From assembly GCA_965223415.1 (NCBI GenBank), contig OZ245002.1, forward strand, positions 960,001 to 1,024,000: 64,000 nucleotides of DNA. Direction: 5' to 3'. This document shows positions 13,851-28,345 of the stretch, in pieces. The stretch's first letter is position 1. Each line of letters begins with the position of its first letter. This DNA is from Myxococcota bacterium. GTDB taxonomy: Bacteria > Myxococcota_A > UBA9160 > UBA6930. The translations under genes were made by a program, and so were the position numbers. The notes under the pieces are model-generated. The model ran no database searches. It worked only from the letters and a program-made list of their open reading frames with translations, and had not been told where the DNA came from.

Positions 13851-15278
13851 ATGGACCACTACCACTACGAGCGCCTGTCGGCCCAGGACAACGACTTCCT
13901 CGAGTGGGAGACGCCGAGCCTCACCATGCACGGCTCGGGCATCTCGGTCTTCGACGCCGGCCCGCTCACCACGGAGGACGGTGGCATCGACTTCGCCGCG
14001 ATCAAGCGGGGCTTCGCCGCGGTCCTCCACCACGTGCCGCGCTACCGGCAGAAGCTCGCCCGCCTTCCCGGCGACGACCGCCCCTACTGGGTGGACGACG
14101 CGCAGTTCAACATCGACTACCACATGCGCCACATCGCGCTTCCCCGCCCGGGCAGCGACGCCCAGCTGAAGCGCCTGGCCGCCGACATCATGGAGCGCCC
14201 CCTCGACCGGGGCCGCCCGCTGTGGGAGACCTGGGCGATCGAGGGCCTCTCGGGCGACCGCTTCGCGCTGATCTCCAAGACCCACCACTGCATGGTCGAC
14301 GGTGCGTCCGGCATGGGGCTCATGGAGCGCCTGTTCTCGATGAAGCCGGAGTACGAGCTCTCGGAGGCGCCGCGCTTCGTGCCGCGGCCCATGCCCTCGA
14401 GTATGGAGCTCTGGCGGGAAGGCTGGCGGCGGCGCCTCGACCTGCCCGGCCGCGCCCTGCGCGGGCTCCGCGAGTTCGTGGAGGAGAGCGACGACCTGGG
14501 CGACGAGATCCTGTCGCGGCTCAAGGCCGTGCGCGATCTCGCGAAGATGAAGCTCGTACCCGCCTCGGACACGCCGATCAACGGGCCGGTCGGCCCCCAC
14601 CGCATCTTCGACTGGCTCGAGCTCTCCCTGGCGGACTTCAAGGCCGTGCGCCGCGCACGCGACTGCTCGATCAACGACGTGGTGCTCACCACCGTCACGG
14701 GCGCCGTGCGCGAGCTGATGACCCTGCGGCAGGTGCGCCCGGAAAGCCTCGACTTCCGCGTGAGCGCGCCGGTGAACGTGCGTCCGAAGGGCGACGCGGA
14801 GAAGCTCGGCAACCACGTATCCTCCTGGATCGTTCCCCTTCCCCTGGACGAGGCCGAGCCCCTCGAGCAGCTGCGTCGCGTTCACGCCACCACCCAGGGG
14901 CTGAAGGACTCGCACCAGGCAGCGGGCGTCGAGATGATGACCGCTCTCCACGAGTGGATCCCCTTCGACATCCAGGGCGCCTCGACCGGCACCCAGAACA
15001 TGCTGGTCACCAACGTCCCCGGCCCGCCCTTCCCCCTCTACCTGCTGGGCGCGGAGATGTGCGGCCTCTACGCCCAGGCGCCCCTCATCGAGAACATCGG
15101 CCTGGCGGTGAGCGTGATCAGCTACAACGGCAGGCTCGGCTTCGGCTTCAACGCCGACTACGACCGGGTGCCGGACCTCGGCCAGTTCGCCCGGGCGATG
15201 CGGCGTTCCTTCGAGCGGCTCGCGAAGGCGGCGGGGACCGCCCCTGCCGAGCCCGCCCTCGTCGCCGCCGGTCGCTAG
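13851..15278 (+). CDS. Wax ester synthase/DGAT
   Basis: Intact THHCMVDG; LDRGRPLWE; SINDVVL; TNVPGP. Confidence 0.93.
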   Translation: MDHYHYERLSAQDNDFLEWETPSLTMHGSGISVFDAGPLTTEDGGIDFAAIKRGFAAVLHHVPRYRQKLARLPGDDRPYWVDDAQFNIDYHMRHIALPRPGSDAQLKRLAADIMERPLDRGRPLWETWAIEGLSGDRFALISKTHHCMVDGASGMGLMERLFSMKPEYELSEAPRFVPRPMPSSMELWREGWRRRLDLPGRALRGLREFVEESDDLGDEILSRLKAVRDLAKMKLVPASDTPINGPVGPHRIFDWLELSLADFKAVRRARDCSINDVVLTTVTGAVRELMTLRQVRPESLDFRVSAPVNVRPKGDAEKLGNHVSSWIVPLPLDEAEPLEQLRRVHATTQGLKDSHQAAGVEMMTALHEWIPFDIQGASTGTQNMLVTNVPGPPFPLYLLGAEMCGLYAQAPLIENIGLAVSVISYNGRLGFGFNADYDRVPDLGQFARAMRRSFERLAKAAGTAPAEPALVAAGR

Positions 15279-15642: not shown

Positions 15643-16854
15643 GTGTCCTGTTTCGGAAAAAAGTACGCAAAATAGTGCGAACTCCCAACGTGCAGGGGGC
15701 ATCTTACCGGCATCACGTTGGGGGGACGTATGGCGAATCGTGGCCGGCCCAAGACGCCGATTGTGCTGACGGATGCGGAGCGAGAAGAGCTCCAGACGCA
15801 CGCCAGAAGGCGGAAGAGCGCGCATCAGTTGGCCTACCGCTCGCGCATTGTATTGCTCGCAGAGCAGGGGCTGACGAATGGGGAAATCGCGGAACGCGTA
15901 GGCAAGCGACGAGAGACCGTCGGGATCTGGCGCAAGCGCTTCGTCGAAAAGCGGATCGCTGGGCTCTACGACGAGCCCAAGCCGGGAGCGCCCCGGACGG
16001 TGACCGACGAGCAGGTCGATGAGGTCGTGCGCTTGACGCTAGAGGAAACGCCCACGGGAGCGACGCACTGGTCCGTTCGCCTGATGGCGAAGCGGGTAGG
16101 CCTCCCGACGACGACGGTTCATCGCATCTGGCGAGCATTCAGCCTCCAGCCGCACCGAGTCGAGCGCTTCCGGCTCTCCAACGATCCCCATTTTGTGGAC
16201 AAGGTGGTGGATATCGTCGGCCTGTACATGTCTCCGCCGGCGAACGCGGTCGTCCTCTGCGTCGACGAGAAATCGCAGATCCAAGCGCTGGAACGGAACC
16301 AGCCTGTCTTGCCGATGCAACCGGGCCGGGCGGAGCAGCGCACACACGGATACCTACGCCATGGCACGACGACACTCTTTGCCGCACTCAACATCGCAAC
16401 GGGCGAAGTGATCGGATCCCTCCATCGCCGGCACCGCACGGAGGAGTTCCTGAAGTTCCTCAGGACGATCGACGACAACGTACCCGCCGAACTCGACATC
16501 CATCTCGTGCTCGACAACTACACCACGCACAAGACGAAGCGAACTCGGAGCTGGCTCGCGCGCCACCCTCGTTTCCACGTGCACTTCACCCCGACGTACA
16601 GCTCATGGCTGAATCAGGTCGAGCGGTTCTTTGCACTCATCACCGAGCGTTGCATCCGTCGCGGCGTGCATCGCAGCACGAGGGCGCTCGAGAACGACAT
16701 CCGGAGCTTCCTGAAGACGACGAACGACGATCCGAGACCCTTCGTCTGGACCAAGACCGCGGATCAGATCCTCGCGAGTGTGCGGCGCTACTGTGGTCGC
16801 GTCCTCGACGTCCACTCCGATTCTAATCGAGTGGTTTCTTCTGGAACAGGACAC
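15643..16854 (+). mobile_element. IS630-family insertion sequence
   Basis: Terminal IRs GTGTCCTGTTTCGGAAAAAA and (reverse complement) GTGTCCTGTTCCAGAAGAAA; TA duplication at 15641-2 and 16855-6 within CTAG; lower GC than flanks. Confidence 0.93.
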
Positions 16855-16857
16855 TAG
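15730..16857 (+). CDS. IS630-family DDE transposase
   Basis: [49 protein letters not shown]; stop TAG is formed by the duplicated TA plus target G. Confidence 0.96.
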
Positions 16858-20711: not shown

Positions 20712-21341
20712 CTACGGCTCCGCCGCCAGCAGCTTCGTGACGTGTGCGGCCTGGGCCCGCGCGAAATCCTCGTCGAGACGGAGCCGGAACACGCTCTCGA
20801 CCACCGGTCGCGCGAGGAACGGGAAGACGCTCATCGCCAGGACCGAGAGCAGGGAGAGCCGCGGGTCGAGGCCCTCCCGGAGCTGGCCCCGCTCGGAGGC
20901 GCGGGCCAGGACGCGGGCCCCGGCCGCGGCGATGCGGGGCGCGTAGCGGGAGGCGAAGTCGCCCCGCAGCTCGTCGCTCGCCAGCACGGTGCGCGCCATC
21001 AGGACCGGCAGCCAGGGACGCTCGCTCACCTGGACCAGCAGGTCCGCGAGCAGGGCCTCGGCGTCGCGGGGTCGGAGGGGCTCGGAGCTTCCCGCGGCCT
21101 CCTCGAGCCGCTCGAGCACGGGAGCGAAGCCTTCCTCGAGGAGCCCCAGCAGGAGCCCCCTCCGAGAGCCGAAGTAGTAAGGGACCATCGCGGGGGTCAC
21201 CTCGGCCCGGCCGGCGATCCCGCGGAAGGAGAGCGCGTCCGGCCCGTCCTCCAGGATCGCCTCGGCGGCCGCCCGGAGCAGGGCGGCCCGGACCCGGACG
21301 CCTCCTTTCGGACCGCGGCGGCCGGCTTGCAGCTCGGGCAT
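20712..21341 (-). CDS. TetR/AcrR family regulator
   Basis: HTH LSFRGIAGRAEVTPAMVPYYFGSRRGLL. Confidence 0.9.
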   Translation of the reverse strand: MPELQAGRRGPKGGVRVRAALLRAAAEAILEDGPDALSFRGIAGRAEVTPAMVPYYFGSRRGLLLGLLEEGFAPVLERLEEAAGSSEPLRPRDAEALLADLLVQVSERPWLPVLMARTVLASDELRGDFASRYAPRIAAAGARVLARASERGQLREGLDPRLSLLSVLAMSVFPFLARPVVESVFRLRLDEDFARAQAAHVTKLLAAEP

Positions 21342-21379
21342 CGCTGGAGTTTAATTCACTATTGAAATAAATACCAGCG
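21342..21379. promoter_or_regulatory. Putative TetR operator (imperfect palindrome)
   Basis: CGCTGGAGTTTAATTCA-CTAT-TGAAATAAATACCAGCG, 14/17 arm match, AT-rich, between the divergent tetR and methyltransferase genes. Confidence 0.7.
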
Positions 21380-21396
21380 TCCGTAGGAGACCTCCC

Positions 21397-21897
21397 GTGA
21401 GCAACACCCGCCTCGCCCACCTCCGCGCGATCCTGATCCTTCCCTTCAACGTCCTCGTGGTGATCCCCACGCTCATCGCGTGGCTCGCCCGCGACCCGGT
21501 GGCGGTGGCCGGGGTCGCGGACCTCCGGCTGTGGGGTGGGCTCGCCTGCCTCGTCGCCGGGGTCGGGCTCATGGCCTGGACCATCGGGCGCTTCTTCCAG
21601 GAAGGGGACGGAACCCTCGCTCCCTGGGACCCGACCCAGCACCTGGTGGTCGCCGGCGTCTACCGCCACGTGCGCAACCCGATGATCACCGGAGTCGTGC
21701 TCAACCTGGTCGGCGAGACGCTCGTCCTGGCCTCGCCGGGCATCGGCCTGTGGGCCGCCCTCTTCTTCGCCGGCAACGCCCTCTACATCCCCCTCGTCGA
21801 AGAGCCGGGCCTCGAGAAGCGCTTCGGCGAGGACTACCGACGCTACCGCGCCGCCGTTCCCCGCTGGCTACCCCGCCTGCGCCCCTGGACCCCCTAG
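21397..21897 (+). CDS. Isoprenylcysteine carboxyl methyltransferase/PEMT-like membrane protein
   Basis: GTLAPWDPTQHLVVAGVYRHVRNPM, EEPGLEKRFGEDY..Y...VPRW. Confidence 0.88.
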   Translation: MSNTRLAHLRAILILPFNVLVVIPTLIAWLARDPVAVAGVADLRLWGGLACLVAGVGLMAWTIGRFFQEGDGTLAPWDPTQHLVVAGVYRHVRNPMITGVVLNLVGETLVLASPGIGLWAALFFAGNALYIPLVEEPGLEKRFGEDYRRYRAAVPRWLPRLRPWTP

Positions 21898-21900
21898 CCT

Positions 21901-21929
21901 GTCGCGTTGGGGACCGGTTCCGCTTGTTG
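21901..21929 (+). repeat. 29-bp dispersed repeat, copy 2
   Basis: 25/29 identical to 15281-15309. Confidence 0.5.
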
Positions 21930-22060
21930 GGCCGCGGGGTCCAAGGCTTGGCTTCGGTGGCGTGGGCGGGCGGAGCCGAAGACCGCGAGTCCGAGGATGC
22001 CGCTGGCCAGCATCCACCTGGCGGAGGGCGCGGGCAACGGGGTTGTCGGCCCGCGGGCGG

Positions 22061-22083
22061 GGGCGACAACGAGGTTGTCGCCC
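22061..22083. terminator. Hairpin just after the PFK-2/FBPase-2 stop (REP-like or terminator-like)
   Basis: GGGCGACAAC-GAG-GTTGTCGCCC, perfect 10-bp stem; a degenerate copy lies at about 22032-22052; no U-tract. Confidence 0.4.
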
Positions 22084-22085
22084 GC

Positions 22086-23327
22086 TCAGCCCGTCTCTAC
22101 CCGGGGCGGGAGCGCGGCGCGCTCCTCGAGGCAGCCGTAGGCGGTCGGCGTGAGCTTGATCAGGGTGTGGAGCGGCATCTCCAGGTGGGGCGTCTCTTCG
22201 ATGGGCAGCTGGCGGAAGTAGGCGACCATCGCCCGCAGCACGGCGCGATGGGCGATCACCAGCACCGGCGTGCGATAGCGCTCGAGCTCGATCAGGACGC
22301 GATCGATGCGGTGGATCACGTCCAGATAGGACTCACCGCGCGGATAGCGGTAGGCGAGCTTGTCCTTCTTGCGCGCGGCGAACTCGCCGGGCATCGAGCG
22401 TTCGATCTCGGTGTAGGTCATGCCGTCGCAGGCGCCGGCCTGGATCTCGTCGAGGGCCTTCCACGACCCCGCCTCCACGCCGAGGGGCGCGGCCGTCTGG
22501 AGCGTGCGGCGCAGCGTGCTGGTCCACACGTCCAGATCCCCCTCGGGCGGGAACACCTCGCGAACGTGGACCGCCAGGTTGGTGGCGTACTCCTCCCCGG
22601 CCGGAGAGAGGGAGGCGTCGCCGCCGATCCGCCCATCCAGGTTGTAGAGGCTCTGGCCGTGGCGGGTCAGCCAGACCGGGCGCCGGGTCACCTGAAGGTT
22701 CGAGAGGAAGAAGACGACCCGCCCGACGATGTACCCGTAGACCTGGTTGATCACCACCTGCGCCCCGCGATTGCGCAGCCGCAGCCAGGGGCCCTCGTCT
22801 TCCCCCAGGGTCTCGTAGACCCGCTCGTAGTGGGCGATGCGCCGGCGGAAATCCGCCAGGGCGTCGGCCTCGGGCACGCCGCGGTAATCCGGCGAGCGGA
22901 GCTTCGTCTCGCGCAGGTTCGCCTCGATGATGGCCGGATCGTCGTTCACGATCTCGACGAAGAGGAGCTCCACGTCCTCCGCGAGGGCGCGCTCGCGGAT
23001 CCACTGGCGGCGCTCGCGGGTGGAGTTCGTGGCGTCGTAGACGGCGATTCGCCCGGGCCCCCGCAGCCACGCACAGGCCTCGTCCAGGGCCTCGCGGGCC
23101 AGCTCCGCCCGCCGCAGGGAGGCCTCCCGGTTCGCGGGATCGAAGAACTCGTGGGACGGGCCGGTCCCGACGGTGGCCCGACGGTGCTCTCCCACGTTGA
23201 AGGCCAGGGTCGGATACCCGAGCCAGGAGAGGTAGCCGACGAGCTTCCGCGCGGTGAAGGTCTTGCCGCGGGCCGGCAGCCCCACCATGGCGATCAGGTG
23301 CTTTCGCCCGCGCCGGGGCCGGCTCAT
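22086..23327 (-). CDS. Bifunctional 6-phosphofructo-2-kinase/fructose-2,6-bisphosphatase (eukaryotic PFKFB-type)
   Basis: Kinase: MVGLPARGKT, FNVGEHRR, AVYDATNSTRERR, SPDY. Phosphatase: RHGQS..N..GRIGGD, WTSTLRRTLQTA, WKALDEI, YRYPRGESY, HRAVLR, PLHT..KLTP.AYGC. RBS GGTGGAG before ATG 23327. Confidence 0.93.
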   Translation of the reverse strand: MSRPRRGRKHLIAMVGLPARGKTFTARKLVGYLSWLGYPTLAFNVGEHRRATVGTGPSHEFFDPANREASLRRAELAREALDEACAWLRGPGRIAVYDATNSTRERRQWIRERALAEDVELLFVEIVNDDPAIIEANLRETKLRSPDYRGVPEADALADFRRRIAHYERVYETLGEDEGPWLRLRNRGAQVVINQVYGYIVGRVVFFLSNLQVTRRPVWLTRHGQSLYNLDGRIGGDASLSPAGEEYATNLAVHVREVFPPEGDLDVWTSTLRRTLQTAAPLGVEAGSWKALDEIQAGACDGMTYTEIERSMPGEFAARKKDKLAYRYPRGESYLDVIHRIDRVLIELERYRTPVLVIAHRAVLRAMVAYFRQLPIEETPHLEMPLHTLIKLTPTAYGCLEERAALPPRVETG

Positions 23328-23376
23328 CTGTCTCCACCCTCCCGGATGCGCAACCCTAGCAGCCGGAGGTGGCACC

Positions 23377-24618
23377 ATGGCGACGATCGGAATCCTGGTG
23401 GGCGGAGGCCCGGCCCCGGGCATCAACGGCGTGATCGGCGCGGCGGCCATCTATGCCCGCCGTCACGGCGCGCGAGTGAAGGGCCTGCTCGACGGCTTCC
23501 GCTGGCTGATGGAAGGCGATGCGAGCAAGGCGACGGACCTGCACATCGGCACCGTCTCCCGCATCCACCTGCTGGGCGGCTCGGTCCTGCAGACCTCGCG
23601 GGCGAATCCGACCAAGAACCCGGAGCACCTGCGGAAGGTGGTCTCCACCCTTCGCGAGCTCGAGATCGATCACCTGGTAACGATCGGCGGGGACGACACC
23701 TGCTACTCGGCGCTGCGCGTCGCCGAGGAGGCCGGTGACGCCATCCGGGTGGCCCACGTTCCGAAGACGATCGACAACGACCTCCCGTTGCCCGAGGGGA
23801 TCCCCACCTTCGGCTTCGAGACGGCGCGCGAGACCGGCGCCACCATCCTGAGCCATCTGATGGAGGACGCGCGCACCACCAGCCGCTGGTACCTCGCGGT
23901 GATGATGGGCCGCTCCGCGGGGCATCTGGCCCTGGGGGCGGCGAAGGCCGCCGGCGCCACCCTGGCCCTCGTCGGAGAGGAGTTCCCGGAGGGACCGATC
24001 CGGCTCGCCGAGGTCGTGCGGCGCATCGAGGCGTCCATCGTCAAGCGGATCGCCTTCCATCGGCCCTACGGCGTCGCCGTGGTGTCCGAAGGCATCGGCG
24101 AGCGGCTCCACCCGGAGGATCTCGAGCGGCTCCCGGAGCTCCCGCGGGACGATCACGGCCACGTGCGGCTGGCCGAGCTACCCCTGGGGCGCCTCCTGGT
24201 CGACGGTGTGAAGCAGGATCTCGGCGAGCTCGGGCTCTCGATGACGATGGTCGCCAAGGACGTGGGCTACGAGCTTCGCTGCGTGGCTCCGAACGCCTTC
24301 GACGCCGAGTACACCCGGGACCTGGGCGCCGGCGCCGTGCGCTGCCTGCTCGACGGCACCCACAAGGTGATGATCACCCGCGAGGGCAACGGCATCCATC
24401 CGGTGCCGCTCACCGACATCCTCGATCGCCAGACCGGCCGCACCCGCGTGCGCCTGCTCGACGTGACCAGCCCGTCCTACAGCATGGGGCGGGCGCTACA
24501 GGTTCGCCTCGAGCAGGAGGACCTCGAGGATCCCCGGGCGGTGCGGCTCCTGGAAGAGGCCACCGGCCGATCGATCGGCCAGCTCCAGGAGCGATGGGCG
24601 AGCGTGCTCGGAGGCTAG
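23377..24618 (+). CDS. pfp: Pyrophosphate-dependent 6-phosphofructokinase
   Basis: GILVGGGPAPGIN, IGGDDT (Asp indicates PPi type), PKTIDND, MGRSAG, GYELRC; RBS GGAGGT. Confidence 0.92.
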   Translation: MATIGILVGGGPAPGINGVIGAAAIYARRHGARVKGLLDGFRWLMEGDASKATDLHIGTVSRIHLLGGSVLQTSRANPTKNPEHLRKVVSTLRELEIDHLVTIGGDDTCYSALRVAEEAGDAIRVAHVPKTIDNDLPLPEGIPTFGFETARETGATILSHLMEDARTTSRWYLAVMMGRSAGHLALGAAKAAGATLALVGEEFPEGPIRLAEVVRRIEASIVKRIAFHRPYGVAVVSEGIGERLHPEDLERLPELPRDDHGHVRLAELPLGRLLVDGVKQDLGELGLSMTMVAKDVGYELRCVAPNAFDAEYTRDLGAGAVRCLLDGTHKVMITREGNGIHPVPLTDILDRQTGRTRVRLLDVTSPSYSMGRALQVRLEQEDLEDPRAVRLLEEATGRSIGQLQERWASVLGG

Positions 24619-24717
24619 GAGCCGACGCCCGCGGGGCACGTGCGCATTTCGCACGGCTCCACCGACGGTGACGGACGAAAACCACCGGGGCGGTGGCGGC
24701 CGATGCGCACCCAGGTA

Positions 24718-24788
24718 GTGACGAACGACACGAACGTCGCGGTGACGAACGACACCAACGAAGCGTCCGTCACTGTGACGAGAGTTAC
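24718..24788. promoter_or_regulatory. Iterated GTGAC-N4-G(A/T)(C/T)AC sites upstream of the mamK-like operon
   Basis: GTGACGAACGACAC(G/C)AACG repeated at 24718 and 24742 (24-bp period), plus GTGACGAGAGTTAC at 24775. Confidence 0.5.
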
Positions 24789-24967
24789 TGCGAGCGCCGT
24801 CGGTGAACGTGCGCGCTTCTCGTGTTCCACTCACTTCGACCGGCGGTTCAATCGCGCGTCCATTTTTTTCGTTCGGGACGCGTTTCTTTTTGACCGCGAT
24901 CACGCGTCGACTCTATGATGCGCCTCGTTCGAACGGCCCAAACAGCAGTTGCCGCGGACGCTCCCCC

Positions 24968-25810
24968 ATGCGCGAACCCACGCCCACCGACGGTGGACAG
25001 AGCTTCAAGATCGACGTCGCGCGCATCATCGATGCGAGCTCGCGTCGCGTTGCGGCGGACGAGCTGGGTGGCCAGGTCGTCCGGGTGGTGGACGCCAGTC
25101 GCATCGACGAAGCGATCGCCCGGGCCGTCGATGACGCCTTGCGCGCCCAGGAGACCAAGCTCGGCCGCTCCCTTCGGCGCGAGGTGGGGTTGGAGGCGAG
25201 CCGGCGCTTCGTCGACCTGATGGGCCGGCACCAACGGGCGGAAGAGGAGCGCCGCGAGGCCCATCGAGCCCGCCGGAAGCTGGAGAAGGAGCTGGACGCG
25301 CTGCGCGAGCAGCTCGCCGCGGAGAGAGCCCGGCTCGAGGGCGAGCACACAAAGGCCGCCGAGCGCGCCTTCTCCCTCTCCGACGACGGGCTTCGGGAGC
25401 TCGAGGCGCACCTGCGCCGGATCGTTTGGGGGTTCGTGAGTGACCAAAGGCGGCGGCGAGCGTTGAGCCCCGGAGGGGCGGACCTCCCGGAGCTCGCTGA
25501 GCTCGAGCGGGTGCTCGGACGCGTGCTCCATCGAGTGCTGGTCCGTGAGCGACTCGCCGCCGCCAGGCCCCTGGATCCCCCGAGCTTGCGTGAGCTCGAG
25601 AACCTGACCCACCGGCTCTTCGACCTGCACGAGCGCCTGGGCGTGCAGGAGCGGGAGATCGCGGAGCTCCGTCGGCTCCGCTCGGTGCCGCCCCGCAGCC
25701 CGCGCGGCGCTTCGACGCCGCGCCCCGGGGGCAACGAGAAGCAGGCCGTCCTCGCGGTGATCTTCAACGAGAACCTGAAGCTCCGCGCCCAGTTCCACCA
25801 AGCCAGCTGA
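24968..25810 (+). CDS. Coiled-coil protein, possibly related to deltaproteobacterial Mad proteins
   Basis: N-terminal IDVARIIDASSRRV..DEL...VRVVDASRIDEAIARAV, heptad-rich middle, C-terminal KQAVLAVIFNENLKL; directly upstream of the mamK-like gene. Confidence 0.65.
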   Translation: MREPTPTDGGQSFKIDVARIIDASSRRVAADELGGQVVRVVDASRIDEAIARAVDDALRAQETKLGRSLRREVGLEASRRFVDLMGRHQRAEEERREAHRARRKLEKELDALREQLAAERARLEGEHTKAAERAFSLSDDGLRELEAHLRRIVWGFVSDQRRRRALSPGGADLPELAELERVLGRVLHRVLVRERLAAARPLDPPSLRELENLTHRLFDLHERLGVQEREIAELRRLRSVPPRSPRGASTPRPGGNEKQAVLAVIFNENLKLRAQFHQAS

Positions 25811-25834: not shown

Positions 25835-26920
25835 TTGACCGAAACGAACCCCGGGCCCGAGGAGGCCCGTCCGCCCGCCGACATCCTCTATCTCGGAATC
25901 GACTTCGGAACCTCGCGAACGTCGATTGCGGCCAGCAACGGCGTCCGGGACACGGTGCTCTCCTACGTCGGCTACCCGAAGGACCACGTGGCCCGAAAGC
26001 TGCTCCAGAAGGACGCGCTCTTCGGGGAGGAGGCCCTGGAGAAGCAGCTGGCCCTCGACTTCTACCGGCCCCTCGCAGGAGGGCAGATCAAGCACTCCGA
26101 GGACGGCGAGCCAATGGACCCGAAGGTCTTCGAGGCCAACACCCGGGCGGCGGGCGAGCTGCTCCGGCACGCCATCAGCCTCGCGGGGGCGGAGGAGGGC
26201 GCAGTGGTCTACGGCGTGCTCGGATCGCCCGCCCAGGCCAGCATCAAGAACAAGAAGGCCCTGCTGGACGCCTGCGCCGGCGCCCTCGACTCGGTGATGC
26301 TCTGCTCGGAGCCCTTCGCCGTCGCCTACGGCATGGATCGCCTGGACGATGTGCTGGTCATCGACATCGGAGCCGGCACGACGGACCTGTGCCGCATGCA
26401 CGGCACGATGCCCGACGAGGCGGACCAGCTCACGATCCCCTTCGCCGGAGACTGGATCGATCGGCAGCTCGCCGAGCTCTTCGCCCGCAAGTGCGCGGGT
26501 GCCGACTTCACGCTCAACATGGTGAAGCAGGCGAAGGAGAAGTTCGCCTTCGTCACCGAGCCCCAGGCCCGGGCGATCGTCGAGTTTCCGGTGAAGGGGA
26601 AGCCGACCCAGTTCGACGTCACCGACGAGATCCGCGAGGGCTGTGGGCGCATCGTGCCCCACATCGTGAAGGGGCTCCAGGAGCTGATCGCCTCCTTCCA
26701 TCCGGAGTTCCAGGCGCGGCTGCGCCAGAACGTGCTGCTCGCTGGGGGAGGCGGGCAGATCATCGGCCTCGACATCGCCATCGAGAGCTACATGCGGGAG
26801 CACCTGGGAGGCGGAAACGTCACCCGGAGCCAGGAGCCCATGTACGGCGGGGCCCACGGTGCCCTGAAGATCGCCTACGACATGCCGGCCGAGTATTGGG
26901 AGCAGCTGAGCACCGGCTAG
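25835..26920 (+). CDS. mamK: MamK-like bacterial actin
   Basis: GIDFGTS, SYVGYPKD, YRPL, SEPFAVAYG, IDIGAGTTDLCRMHG, AGDWID, FHPEFQ..LRQNVLLAGGG, GALKIAYDMPAEYW; TTG start with RBS AAGGGAG. Confidence 0.88.
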   Translation: MTETNPGPEEARPPADILYLGIDFGTSRTSIAASNGVRDTVLSYVGYPKDHVARKLLQKDALFGEEALEKQLALDFYRPLAGGQIKHSEDGEPMDPKVFEANTRAAGELLRHAISLAGAEEGAVVYGVLGSPAQASIKNKKALLDACAGALDSVMLCSEPFAVAYGMDRLDDVLVIDIGAGTTDLCRMHGTMPDEADQLTIPFAGDWIDRQLAELFARKCAGADFTLNMVKQAKEKFAFVTEPQARAIVEFPVKGKPTQFDVTDEIREGCGRIVPHIVKGLQELIASFHPEFQARLRQNVLLAGGGGQIIGLDIAIESYMREHLGGGNVTRSQEPMYGGAHGALKIAYDMPAEYWEQLSTG

Positions 26921-26962: not shown

Positions 26963-28345
26963 GTGAAGTCGATCGAGGACGTGTTTCCGGCGCGCTCCGG
27001 GGAGGCGGGCGAGTACGTCGCCCGTCCGGCCGTGGAGCGCGCCCGAAGCGAGCTGCTGCAGCTGCTGCGAGGCGGCGAGACCTGCGTCCGGCTCGCCGGG
27101 CCGGCAGGCCTGGGCAAGACCCTCCTGCTCCGCCTCGTCGCCCAGGATCTGGGGCCCGACTGGCGCTGCGTCCACCTGTCGAACCCGCGGATCGACGCGG
27201 ACGAGCTGTGGAGACGCATCGCCCGGCGGCTGGCCTCCCGGGGCGCGGCGCCGCGGGTCGTGGCCCGGGTCGCAGCGCAGGCCTACGAGCGCCAGGGCGC
27301 GCTCCTGGTGATCGTCGACGACGCCCACCACCAGCCCGCGCCGACCCGGCGCGCGCTCGCCAGGGCTTGCGCCCATCACGCCGGGCTGCGCGTGTTGCTC
27401 TGCGAGACCGTTCCGGCCGGGGAATCGGACCAGGCGGGCCCCGGGGAGGTGTGGCTGCGCGAGCCCATGACGGCGGCGGAGGCGCGGGCGTACCTGCACG
27501 AGCGGCTCGATCGGGGGCGCGTCCCGGCGGAGCTGCGCGCGCGCTTCGACGGGCCGACGATCGACCGGCTGCAGCGCGAGGCGAAGGGAAGCGTCGCGAC
27601 CTTCCACGCCCTGGCCGGAGCGGTCCTGCGCGAGGAAGACGCCGCCGAGCGGGCAGCGAGCGAGGCCGTGACGCAGGCTCCGGCCCCCCGGGAGCCCGAG
27701 CCCCTGGTCGTGCTGGTTTCGGCCCCGGAGCCGCCGCCCCGGGAGGAACCCCCGAGGCTCCGCAGCGGGAGGCGTCCGCAGACGGTCCGCGAGGCGATCA
27801 AGGCCACGTCTCCGCGCCGGCGACCGCCGGCAGAGCTCCCGTCCGCTCGTCCTCCGGCGTCGACCCGGCGCCAGCCCGCAGTGCGGACCGCACCTGCGCC
27901 CGTCCCCGCGGACGACGCCCCCCCCCGGCGGGCGCTCCCCCGCGCGCGCTCGGGCTGGCTCGCCGGAAGTCTGGTGGTGGGGCTGCTGCTCGGAGTGGCC
28001 GGCACCCGGCTGATGGCGAGCGACCCCGACCCGGCCTCCCCCGTTCCGGAGCCGCCTCCCGTCGCGAGCGCTCCCCCGCCCGCGGTGCCGCTCGGGCGGA
28101 TCAACGTGAACGCGGTTCCCTGGGCGCGGATCGAGATCGACGGCGAGCCGGCGGGCGAGACGCCGCTCGGCGAGCACGAGCTGCCCCGCGGGCCCCACCG
28201 ACTGGTCGCGCGCTTCCCGGACGGGAGCGTGGTCGAGAGGACGGTGGAGCTCGGCAAGGAGGAGGTCTTCCTGCTGCTCCGCCCCGAGGACACCTCGTCC
28301 CCCGCTACCCCGACGAGCCCACTCGCGGAAGCACCCGCTCCGTGA
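26963..28345 (+). CDS. ExeA/GspA-like AAA ATPase + Pro-rich linker + TM helix + PEGA-like domain
   Basis: Walker A GPAGLGKT, Walker B LLVIVDDAH, TM WLAGSLVVGLLLGVAG, C-terminal NAVPWARIEIDGEPAGETPL...GPHRL. Confidence 0.75.
   Translation: MKSIEDVFPARSGEAGEYVARPAVERARSELLQLLRGGETCVRLAGPAGLGKTLLLRLVAQDLGPDWRCVHLSNPRIDADELWRRIARRLASRGAAPRVVARVAAQAYERQGALLVIVDDAHHQPAPTRRALARACAHHAGLRVLLCETVPAGESDQAGPGEVWLREPMTAAEARAYLHERLDRGRVPAELRARFDGPTIDRLQREAKGSVATFHALAGAVLREEDAAERAASEAVTQAPAPREPEPLVVLVSAPEPPPREEPPRLRSGRRPQTVREAIKATSPRRRPPAELPSARPPASTRRQPAVRTAPAPVPADDAPPRRALPRARSGWLAGSLVVGLLLGVAGTRLMASDPDPASPVPEPPPVASAPPPAVPLGRINVNAVPWARIEIDGEPAGETPLGEHELPRGPHRLVARFPDGSVVERTVELGKEEVFLLLRPEDTSSPATPTSPLAEAPAP

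Follow-up and report, generated by a model that had tools for sequence, protein, structure and literature searches.

A bacterial PFKFB gene placed head-to-head with a short pyrophosphate-type phosphofructokinase gene, and its co-occurrence with class I fructose-1,6-bisphosphatase in Myxococcota

Genomic context of the PFKFB-PFK pair

The window, meaning the whole stretch of 64,000 nucleotides analysed here (contig OZ245002.1 of a Myxococcota bacterium), contains a gene for a bifunctional 6-phosphofructo-2-kinase/fructose-2,6-bisphosphatase (PFKFB) placed head-to-head with a gene for a short 6-phosphofructokinase (PFK) of the inorganic pyrophosphate (PPi) type. Textbooks present fructose 2,6-bisphosphate (Fru-2,6-P2) as a regulator of eukaryotes, and PFKFB genes of bacteria have, to our knowledge, been treated as a curiosity without known targets. 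The PFKFB open reading frame (ORF) lies on the minus strand (22086..23327; 413 amino acids (aa), ATG start; PF01591 and PF00300) and the PFK ORF, of the Trichomonas/Thermotogales type, on the plus strand (23377..24618; 413 aa, ATG start), the latter with the motifs GGDD, PKTIDND, MGR and GYELR. The divergent spacer of 49 base pairs (bp) between the two ATG starts (23328..23376), which measures 49-281 bp in relatives, accommodates the ribosome-binding sites of both genes, with a GGAG(G) motif upstream of each start. A first-pass annotation had described, from the letters alone, a 413-aa PFKFB of kinase-then-phosphatase order 49 bp from a 413-aa PPi-type PFK, and all the motifs that it named are present.

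The source genome (G000) is one contig of 5.83 Mb, is 97% complete, and has one PFKFB gene and one PFK-A gene, the latter being its sole PF00365 member. The G+C content at third codon positions (GC3) is 0.93 and 0.92 for the PFKFB/PFK pair and 0.94 and 0.92 for the two adjoining genes. Positions 21300-25200 of the window are spanned with 0 differences by contigs from two public sequencing runs, which come from one study and may be the source of this DNA. A chimeric assembly at the locus is very unlikely because of these spanning contigs and the same gene arrangement in relatives, and the earlier view that bacterial ribosome-binding sites and host-like codons make contamination improbable is borne out by the GC3 values, the motifs before both starts and the clean contigs.

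A putative extended -10 element for PFKFB (TG-n-TAnnnT) is found in the spacer on the minus strand (23353..23361), and its 9-mer recurs in 6 of 7 same-genus-like spacers, with none of four more distant aligned spacers sharing it. A sigma-70 consensus scan of the 49 bp, which requires a -35 box, reported no promoter. The promoter region that had been proposed as common to the two genes thus stands as a short divergent spacer with both ribosome-binding sites, and because the scan found no promoter in it we infer, rather than report, that it is shared by PFKFB and PFK.

PFKFB encodes an intact catalytic core

Hidden Markov model searches placed both domains of PFKFB far above their cut-offs, with Pfam 6PF2K matching residues 7-214 (211.5 bits, cut-off 27) and His_Phos_1 matching residues 218-399 (122.7 bits, cut-off 21.7), in kinase-then-phosphatase order. 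The best match in the PDB is human PFKFB3 (E 3.5e-110) in an end-to-end alignment. The AlphaFold (AF2) model, with a predicted local distance difference test (pLDDT) score of 90.3, superposes on human PFKFB3 and PFKFB1 with template modelling (TM) scores of 0.93-0.94, and across full-length solved PFKFB structures with TM scores of 0.91-0.94 at 44-46% identity. The protein is the catalytic core alone, its domains filling residues 7-399 of 413 aa, and it has none of the N- or C-terminal segments, with phosphorylation sites or CBM20, by which animal and plant isoforms are regulated. Such segments mark the eukaryotic isoforms and not the catalytic family; bacterial PFKFB ORFs have a median length of 413 aa.

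Twenty-seven of the 40 positions tested are invariant in 88/88 bacterial PFKFB sequences, including the P-loop, the Asp of DATN, Lys, Arg and Tyr of the kinase, the phospho-His and catalytic Glu of the phosphatase, and the Arg302 equivalent; the residue roles and PFKFB3 numbering used here are, except for Ser/Arg302, what we take them to be. The residues for binding of fructose 6-phosphate (F6P) and of ATP agree almost throughout with those of the animal enzyme. In domain order, fold, P-loop, phospho-His and catalytic Glu, the protein resembles animal PFKFB1-4 (PDB 2axn, 6iby, 1k6m, 1bif and 5htk) and plant F2KP, whereas it differs from them in its bacterial host, its lack of phosphorylation tails or CBM20, a Gln-to-Arg replacement in the phosphatase site, the linkage of its gene to a PFK gene and in being known from sequence. 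It also has an Arg, Arg274, at the position of PFKFB3 Ser302, the residue that makes PFKFB3 a weak phosphatase according to the accessible text of PMC6131595.

Ratios of nonsynonymous to synonymous substitution rates (dN/dS) against three same-genus relatives are 0.10, 0.11 and 0.31, which are rough values with dS close to saturation, and they point to purifying selection on PFKFB. The gene is a native, intact bacterial gene. Its product looks enzymatically alive, and its residues suggest that it both makes and hydrolyses Fru-2,6-P2.

Co-occurrence of PFKFB with class I FBPase

The survey covered 401 genomes of the phylum, 14 control genomes and all 225 genomes of the class; related genomes among them are not independent, and many are incomplete metagenome-assembled genomes (MAGs). 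PFKFB is present in 81/401 phylum genomes, in 29/225 class genomes and in 0/14 controls. NCBI-named members exist in Sorangium and Minicystis, in agreement with the earlier caution that the gene alone might not be new.

A class I fructose-1,6-bisphosphatase (FBPase I) is encoded outside the window, 2.5 Mb from PFKFB (G000:C1:3513010-3514014), and matches PF00316 with 193.7 bits (cut-off 34.8), narrowly missing its best NCBIfam equivalog (359.3 against 368). It scores 297 bits to mammalian enzymes and 266 bits to the E. coli enzyme, and its sugar-phosphate site is retained. In the alignment to mammalian enzymes the TGELT-type motif, which is the FBPase AMP site in the accessible text of PMC12675262, is replaced. 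GlpX and class V FBPase gave no match in this genome. Class I FBPase is the textbook target of Fru-2,6-P2, and the E. coli FBPase is likewise inhibited by it in vitro. Fru-2,6-P2 occupies the FBPase active site, as stated in the part of PMC5108348 available to us. Most FBPases of the class (L126, L187-L215) carry mammal-like SxNEAY and RY(I/V)GSM motifs, other phylum members having mostly Asn and Leu there, and for most of them the scores to mammalian structures exceed those to E. coli ones.

FBPase I accompanies 26 of the 29 PFKFB-positive class genomes and 19 of the 196 PFKFB-negative ones; in the phylum sample the corresponding counts are 73/81 and 138/320. Genera outside the home family follow the same direction (6/8 PFKFB-positive against 10/71 negative, p 6e-4 by hand tally), and in one family of 44 the sole PFKFB genome is also the sole FBPase genome. 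Taken three ways within the class, PFKFB is found in 25/35 genomes with both PFK and FBPase I, in 1/10 with FBPase only (these are 73-95% complete, several of them small) and in 3/180 without FBPase, which is the pattern to be expected of a signal whose purpose is to prevent cycling between opposed enzymes. Tree distances of PFKFB correlate with those of FBPase at rho 0.77 and with those of the linked PFK at rho 0.18 (18 genomes), both values being affected by the long branch of one genus (g3) and by shared descent. The unlinked class I FBPase is a better-supported partner of PFKFB than the adjoining PFK.

A proposed switch between F6P and fructose 1,6-bisphosphate

We propose, with a probability of roughly 0.6, that PFKFB restrains a PFK/FBPase futile cycle, mainly through inhibition of FBPase by Fru-2,6-P2. 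It would be the working Fru-2,6-P2 synthase/phosphatase of this bacterial lineage and a switch at the step between F6P and fructose 1,6-bisphosphate. By virtue of their two reactions, a PPi-PFK that is reversible and a class I FBPase that is not would, running together, give net hydrolysis of PPi, and PPi probably has a competing, energy-conserving use in G000, because soluble and membrane pyrophosphatases are encoded there. Pyruvate kinase is encoded as well, and no glycogen synthase above the cut-off was found in this genome. At high F6P, the kinase domain would make Fru-2,6-P2, which would block the active site of FBPase in the manner of liver and plant cytosol; with falling F6P, the phosphatase domain would clear Fru-2,6-P2 and gluconeogenesis could resume. 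The divergent pairing with pfk would most likely couple production of the brake to production of the forward enzyme, and direct activation of PFK by Fru-2,6-P2 would be a conceivable second arm.

Several points weigh against this proposal. It builds on intact genes, residues, folds, co-occurrence and linkage, which are observed, and from these it predicts catalysis, FBPase inhibition and co-transcription. The Gln of the phosphatase site, which presumably contacts substrate and which we take to be Q388 in PFKFB3 numbering, is Arg361 in this PFKFB, and an Arg is also found in 21/88 bacterial sequences. In FBPase, Fru-2,6-P2 is bound by residues that also serve the substrate, so that their conservation does not discriminate, and FBPase never adjoins PFKFB in the loci examined. 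FBPase I is missing in 8/81 phylum and 3/29 class genomes with PFKFB, and G233 (96% complete) has the head-to-head pair and no FBPase I match; in the other direction, 10/35 class genomes with both enzymes and 138 phylum genomes with FBPase do without PFKFB. Some of the co-occurrence, and likewise some of the tree correlation, can be put down to shared descent.

If the proposal is true, bacteria own a dedicated sugar second messenger at the switch between glycolysis and gluconeogenesis, in a phylum already tied to several eukaryote-like pathways. The locus and the comparative pattern name candidate targets, which reduces the question to an assay of three soluble enzymes, and the cultured carriers Sorangium and Minicystis make in vivo testing possible.

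Distribution of the head-to-head pair

The pair is present in 15 of the 29 PFKFB-positive class genomes, which belong to three genera in two families: genus g1 (6/6), genus g3 (8/8) and G233 from another family, with spacers of 49-281 bp and with loci that duplicate counted genomes entered once. Two further cases are L002 and the metagenome locus L254. The two genes are apart in the remaining 14/29 (uncertain in G474, with 449 bp to the contig end). Outside the class, an adjacent PFK was found in 0/59 PFKFB loci (59 were retrieved out of 69 positive loci, and 56 of them extend 1.5 kb or more upstream), one locus having a different PFK about 5 kb from PFKFB, and the pair occurs in 1/80 metagenome PFKFB loci (43 of which extend 1.5 kb or more upstream), which rules out the pairing as a phylum-wide module. 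Conservation of the adjacency in other bacteria, which the first-pass annotation had named as a point to check, therefore holds for part of the class and fails beyond it: the PFKFB-PFK link is lineage-limited, and the dependence on class I FBPase is broader.

One explanation is that the adjacency is an old chance rearrangement held in place by overlapping promoters in a short spacer, so that the enzyme may signal while the pairing carries no information on its target. A tree of 68 class PFKs was built from 16 linked sequences, 12 unlinked sequences from PFKFB genomes and 40 hand-picked from about 160 PFKFB-negative genomes, and because all linked PFKs share one clade (support 0.985), which also holds unlinked and PFKFB-negative members, a single origin may suffice for the pair. 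The near absence of the pair from loci outside the class and from metagenome loci is in line with chance, as are the neighbours of PFKFB elsewhere, which are specific to their lineages and for the most part have no relation to sugar metabolism. Against chance, however, the partner out of all possible neighbours is the enzyme that shares F6P, and the pair outlasts its flanks, being kept down to 54% PFK and 63% PFKFB identity with flanking genes changing and the spacer turning over from 49 to 281 bp. We consider this explanation unlikely, although it deserves serious weight.

Several other neighbours and targets were considered. In family f19, an apparent PFK-like cluster adjoining PFKFB proved to be an artefact of clustering from a mis-called ORF and is an M24 peptidase. 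Neither FBPase nor pyruvate kinase was found next to PFKFB in 83 metagenome and viral loci, nor among 131 and 61 neighbour proteins scanned. A tandem eukaryote-type PFK was rejected as a general target, with TIGR02478 matching in just 7/401 genomes, 3 of them PFKFB-negative. Of these tandem PFKs (L246-L252), 6/7 score above the cut-off; four come from PFKFB-positive genomes, and the three from family f59, which have the top scores, come from PFKFB-negative ones. A second carbohydrate context is seen at L110 and L302, where PFKFB has a divergent TrmB sugar regulator on one side and an alpha-amylase-family gene on the other. At L272 a separate histidine phosphatase follows PFKFB, and at L308 PFKFB faces an inositol-monophosphatase-family gene.

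The adjoining PFK

The best PDB match of the PFK is Trichomonas vaginalis PPi-PFK1 (9dqm; E 2.2e-107, 45% identity), and its AF2 model (pLDDT 92.8) superposes on T. vaginalis PPi-PFK with TM scores of 0.92-0.94. NCBIfam NF041103 (PFKA_PPi_Ttgales) matches over the full length with 543.7 bits against a cut-off of 550; with the equivalog threshold missed, the protein is a close relative of the Thermotogales PPi-PFK equivalog and not a formal member. GGDD is located at residues 104-107 and PKTIDND at 129-135, with Ser111 in place of Gly in the adenine cleft, and the enzyme probably uses PPi reversibly. Plant-type PFP was rejected (TIGR02477 137.7 against a cut-off of 587.95 bits), the one PF00365 gene in the genome leaving no second subunit, and so was eukaryote-type tandem PFK-1, for which TIGR02478 gave no match in G000. 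The motifs GGDD, PKTIDND, MGR and GYELR are shared with Trichomonas PPi-PFK1 (9dqm, 9mdt, 9mf6), whereas the aromatics of its AMP site are replaced here (Tyr65 to Ile57, Trp386 to Val376) and the basic residues are kept.

The first-pass annotation had taken this PFK as the plausible target of the signal. In the fullest form of that idea, the adjoining PFK would be the main target of Fru-2,6-P2, activated like plant PFP, perhaps via a Trichomonas-type pocket at the dimer interface; this is compatible with control of FBPase. In the nearest solved enzyme the dimer interface holds sites for AMP and sugar phosphate, their relevance untested, according to the accessible part of bioRxiv 10.64898/2026.03.28.715000. 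The Trichomonas AMP contacts align to Arg28, Arg29, Ile57, Lys223, Phe227, Gln375 and Val376 of the PFK. Arg28, Arg29 and Lys223 are retained in 16/16 linked PFKs, against 17/40, 19/40 and 39/40 PFKs of PFKFB-negative genomes, and the adenine-stacking Trp is gone from the linked PFKs; these dimer-interface residues would allow room for a bisphosphate pocket, in a comparison that is confounded by kinship and for which the 40 negative genomes were our own choice. Retention of the pair while its flanks change also favours PFK as the target, as do G233, with its pair and no FBPase I match, and the survival of the link through a change of catalytic motif in g3 (below).

The same type of PFK is, however, near-universal in the class (a match in 192/225 genomes), mostly in genomes without PFKFB, and PFKFB tracks the unlinked FBPase I far better. 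The genes are apart in 14/29 PFKFB genomes, the linked PFKs share their clade with unlinked and PFKFB-negative members such that the link may have arisen once, and the PFK is not a plant PFP. All characterised bacterial PPi-PFKs are non-allosteric in the accessible text of PMC12203962, in which plant PFP answers to Fru-2,6-P2 and the Naegleria PPi-PFK to AMP. The PFK is accordingly displaced from the central place that it had been given, and we think it rather unlikely to be the main target.

In genus g3, 8/8 linked PFKs have GGDG, as does that of L254, and the remaining 60 have GGDD; the residue at the adenine cleft of the g3 linked PFKs is Ala (2), Val (4) or Ile (2). The accessible text of PMC11609450 gives GGDGSxxI as the ADP-type motif and GGDGSxxG as the ATP-type motif, and the GGDGTxx[A/V/I] of g3 is nearer to the ADP-type. 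The g3 PFKs would thus have a nucleotide-type site, perhaps for ADP, in an apparent natural phosphate-donor switch inside one clade. The linkage to PFKFB persists despite the change from GGDD to GGDG (8/8), and an irreversible PFK in combination with FBPase I would make reciprocal control all the more necessary. Loops next to GGDG are also altered in these short PFKs (L048, L049, L050, L051, L128-L131 and L254).

Alternative functions, known systems and origin

PFKFB may instead act on another sugar phosphate, or serve metabolite repair or F6P buffering, without Fru-2,6-P2 signalling. The missing regulatory tails (median ORF 413 aa), the Gln-to-Arg replacement and entire FBPase I families without PFKFB, such as f24 (0/23 PFKFB, 23/23 FBPase), are in keeping with such a role. 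It is nevertheless improbable, given the near-complete agreement of the F6P- and ATP-binding residues with the animal enzyme and the dependence of PFKFB on FBPase plus PFK, which is a prediction of Fru-2,6-P2 control.

A much wider extension of the proposed switch would have Fru-2,6-P2 inhibit a mammal-like FBPase and also activate the linked PFK through a dimer-interface pocket, making it the first allosteric bacterial PPi-PFK; the g3 PFK would have moved to a nucleotide donor under the same control, which would re-create the PFK/FBPase circuit of eukaryotes, and the history of the system in Myxococcota would be long enough for Fru-2,6-P2 signalling in eukaryotes to be its sister or to derive from it. 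Taken as a whole this is speculative and quite improbable. Contamination by eukaryotic DNA, chimerism of the assembly or a recent transfer without function, which the identity of 45-50% to enzymes of animals, amoebozoans and plants could bring to mind, has a negligible probability and is refuted by the intronless gene, host GC3, independent spanning contigs (possibly the source of this DNA), presence in 81/401 genomes, clustering largely by bacterial family and purifying selection.

The PFK-2/FBPase-2 of Desulfovibrio desulfuricans is the lone bacterial exception in the accessible text of PMC9721465, citing Rider 2004. Compared by description, it is likewise a bacterial PFKFB, whereas the gene described here belongs to a family present in about one fifth of the sampled phylum genomes, and it has a linked PFK and a co-occurring FBPase. 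The cytosolic PFP, cytosolic FBPase and F2KP of plants are alike in bringing together, within one compartment, a PPi-PFK that is reversible, an FBPase of class I and an enzyme for Fru-2,6-P2, as described in the parts of the plant literature available to us; the PFK here is, in contrast, of the short single-gene type and not a long alpha/beta PFP, and its sensitivity to the signal is a proposal. The PFKFB gene is already known in bacteria, and what appears to be new is its pairing with PFK and its co-occurrence with FBPase; no report of either was found in the open-access literature, subscription journals lying outside the scope of that search.

In a quick maximum-likelihood tree, 36 of 37 bacterial PFKFB rows group together (Shimodaira-Hasegawa-like approximate likelihood ratio test (SH-aLRT) support 93), apart from the amoebozoan and plant clades, and PFKFBs of the class form a group with support 99, with a similar result in a second tree. 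These trees, made without animals, fungi or other bacterial phyla and without a reliable root from which the direction of transfer could be read, would fit a long residence in the phylum. The best matches of a dictyostelid query include proteins of Polyangiaceae with 54-58% identity. A search for the term 'PFKFB' in the main texts of PMC11976288 and bioRxiv 10.64898/2026.05.08.723234 gave no occurrence. Five proteins of 808-1047 aa (P0124-P0128), in which an N-terminal AMPK-type glycogen-binding domain is fused to PFKFB, are nested among bacterial sequences in the trees, and three AT-rich contigs that bear the label of giant-virus MAGs (L334-L336) carry PFKFB homologues of 35-40% identity.

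Other features of the window

Downstream of the PFK, an ORF at 25835-26920 (plus strand) encodes a MamK-family actin (NCBIfam 407.2, cut-off 400), flanked by 24803-25810, whose product is coiled-coil-like with no Pfam match, and by 26963-28345, which encodes an AAA_22 ATPase. Elsewhere, the product of 15718-16857 (plus strand) resembles what we take to be an IS630-type transposase, and 13851-15278 (plus strand) presumably encodes a wax ester synthase/DGAT.

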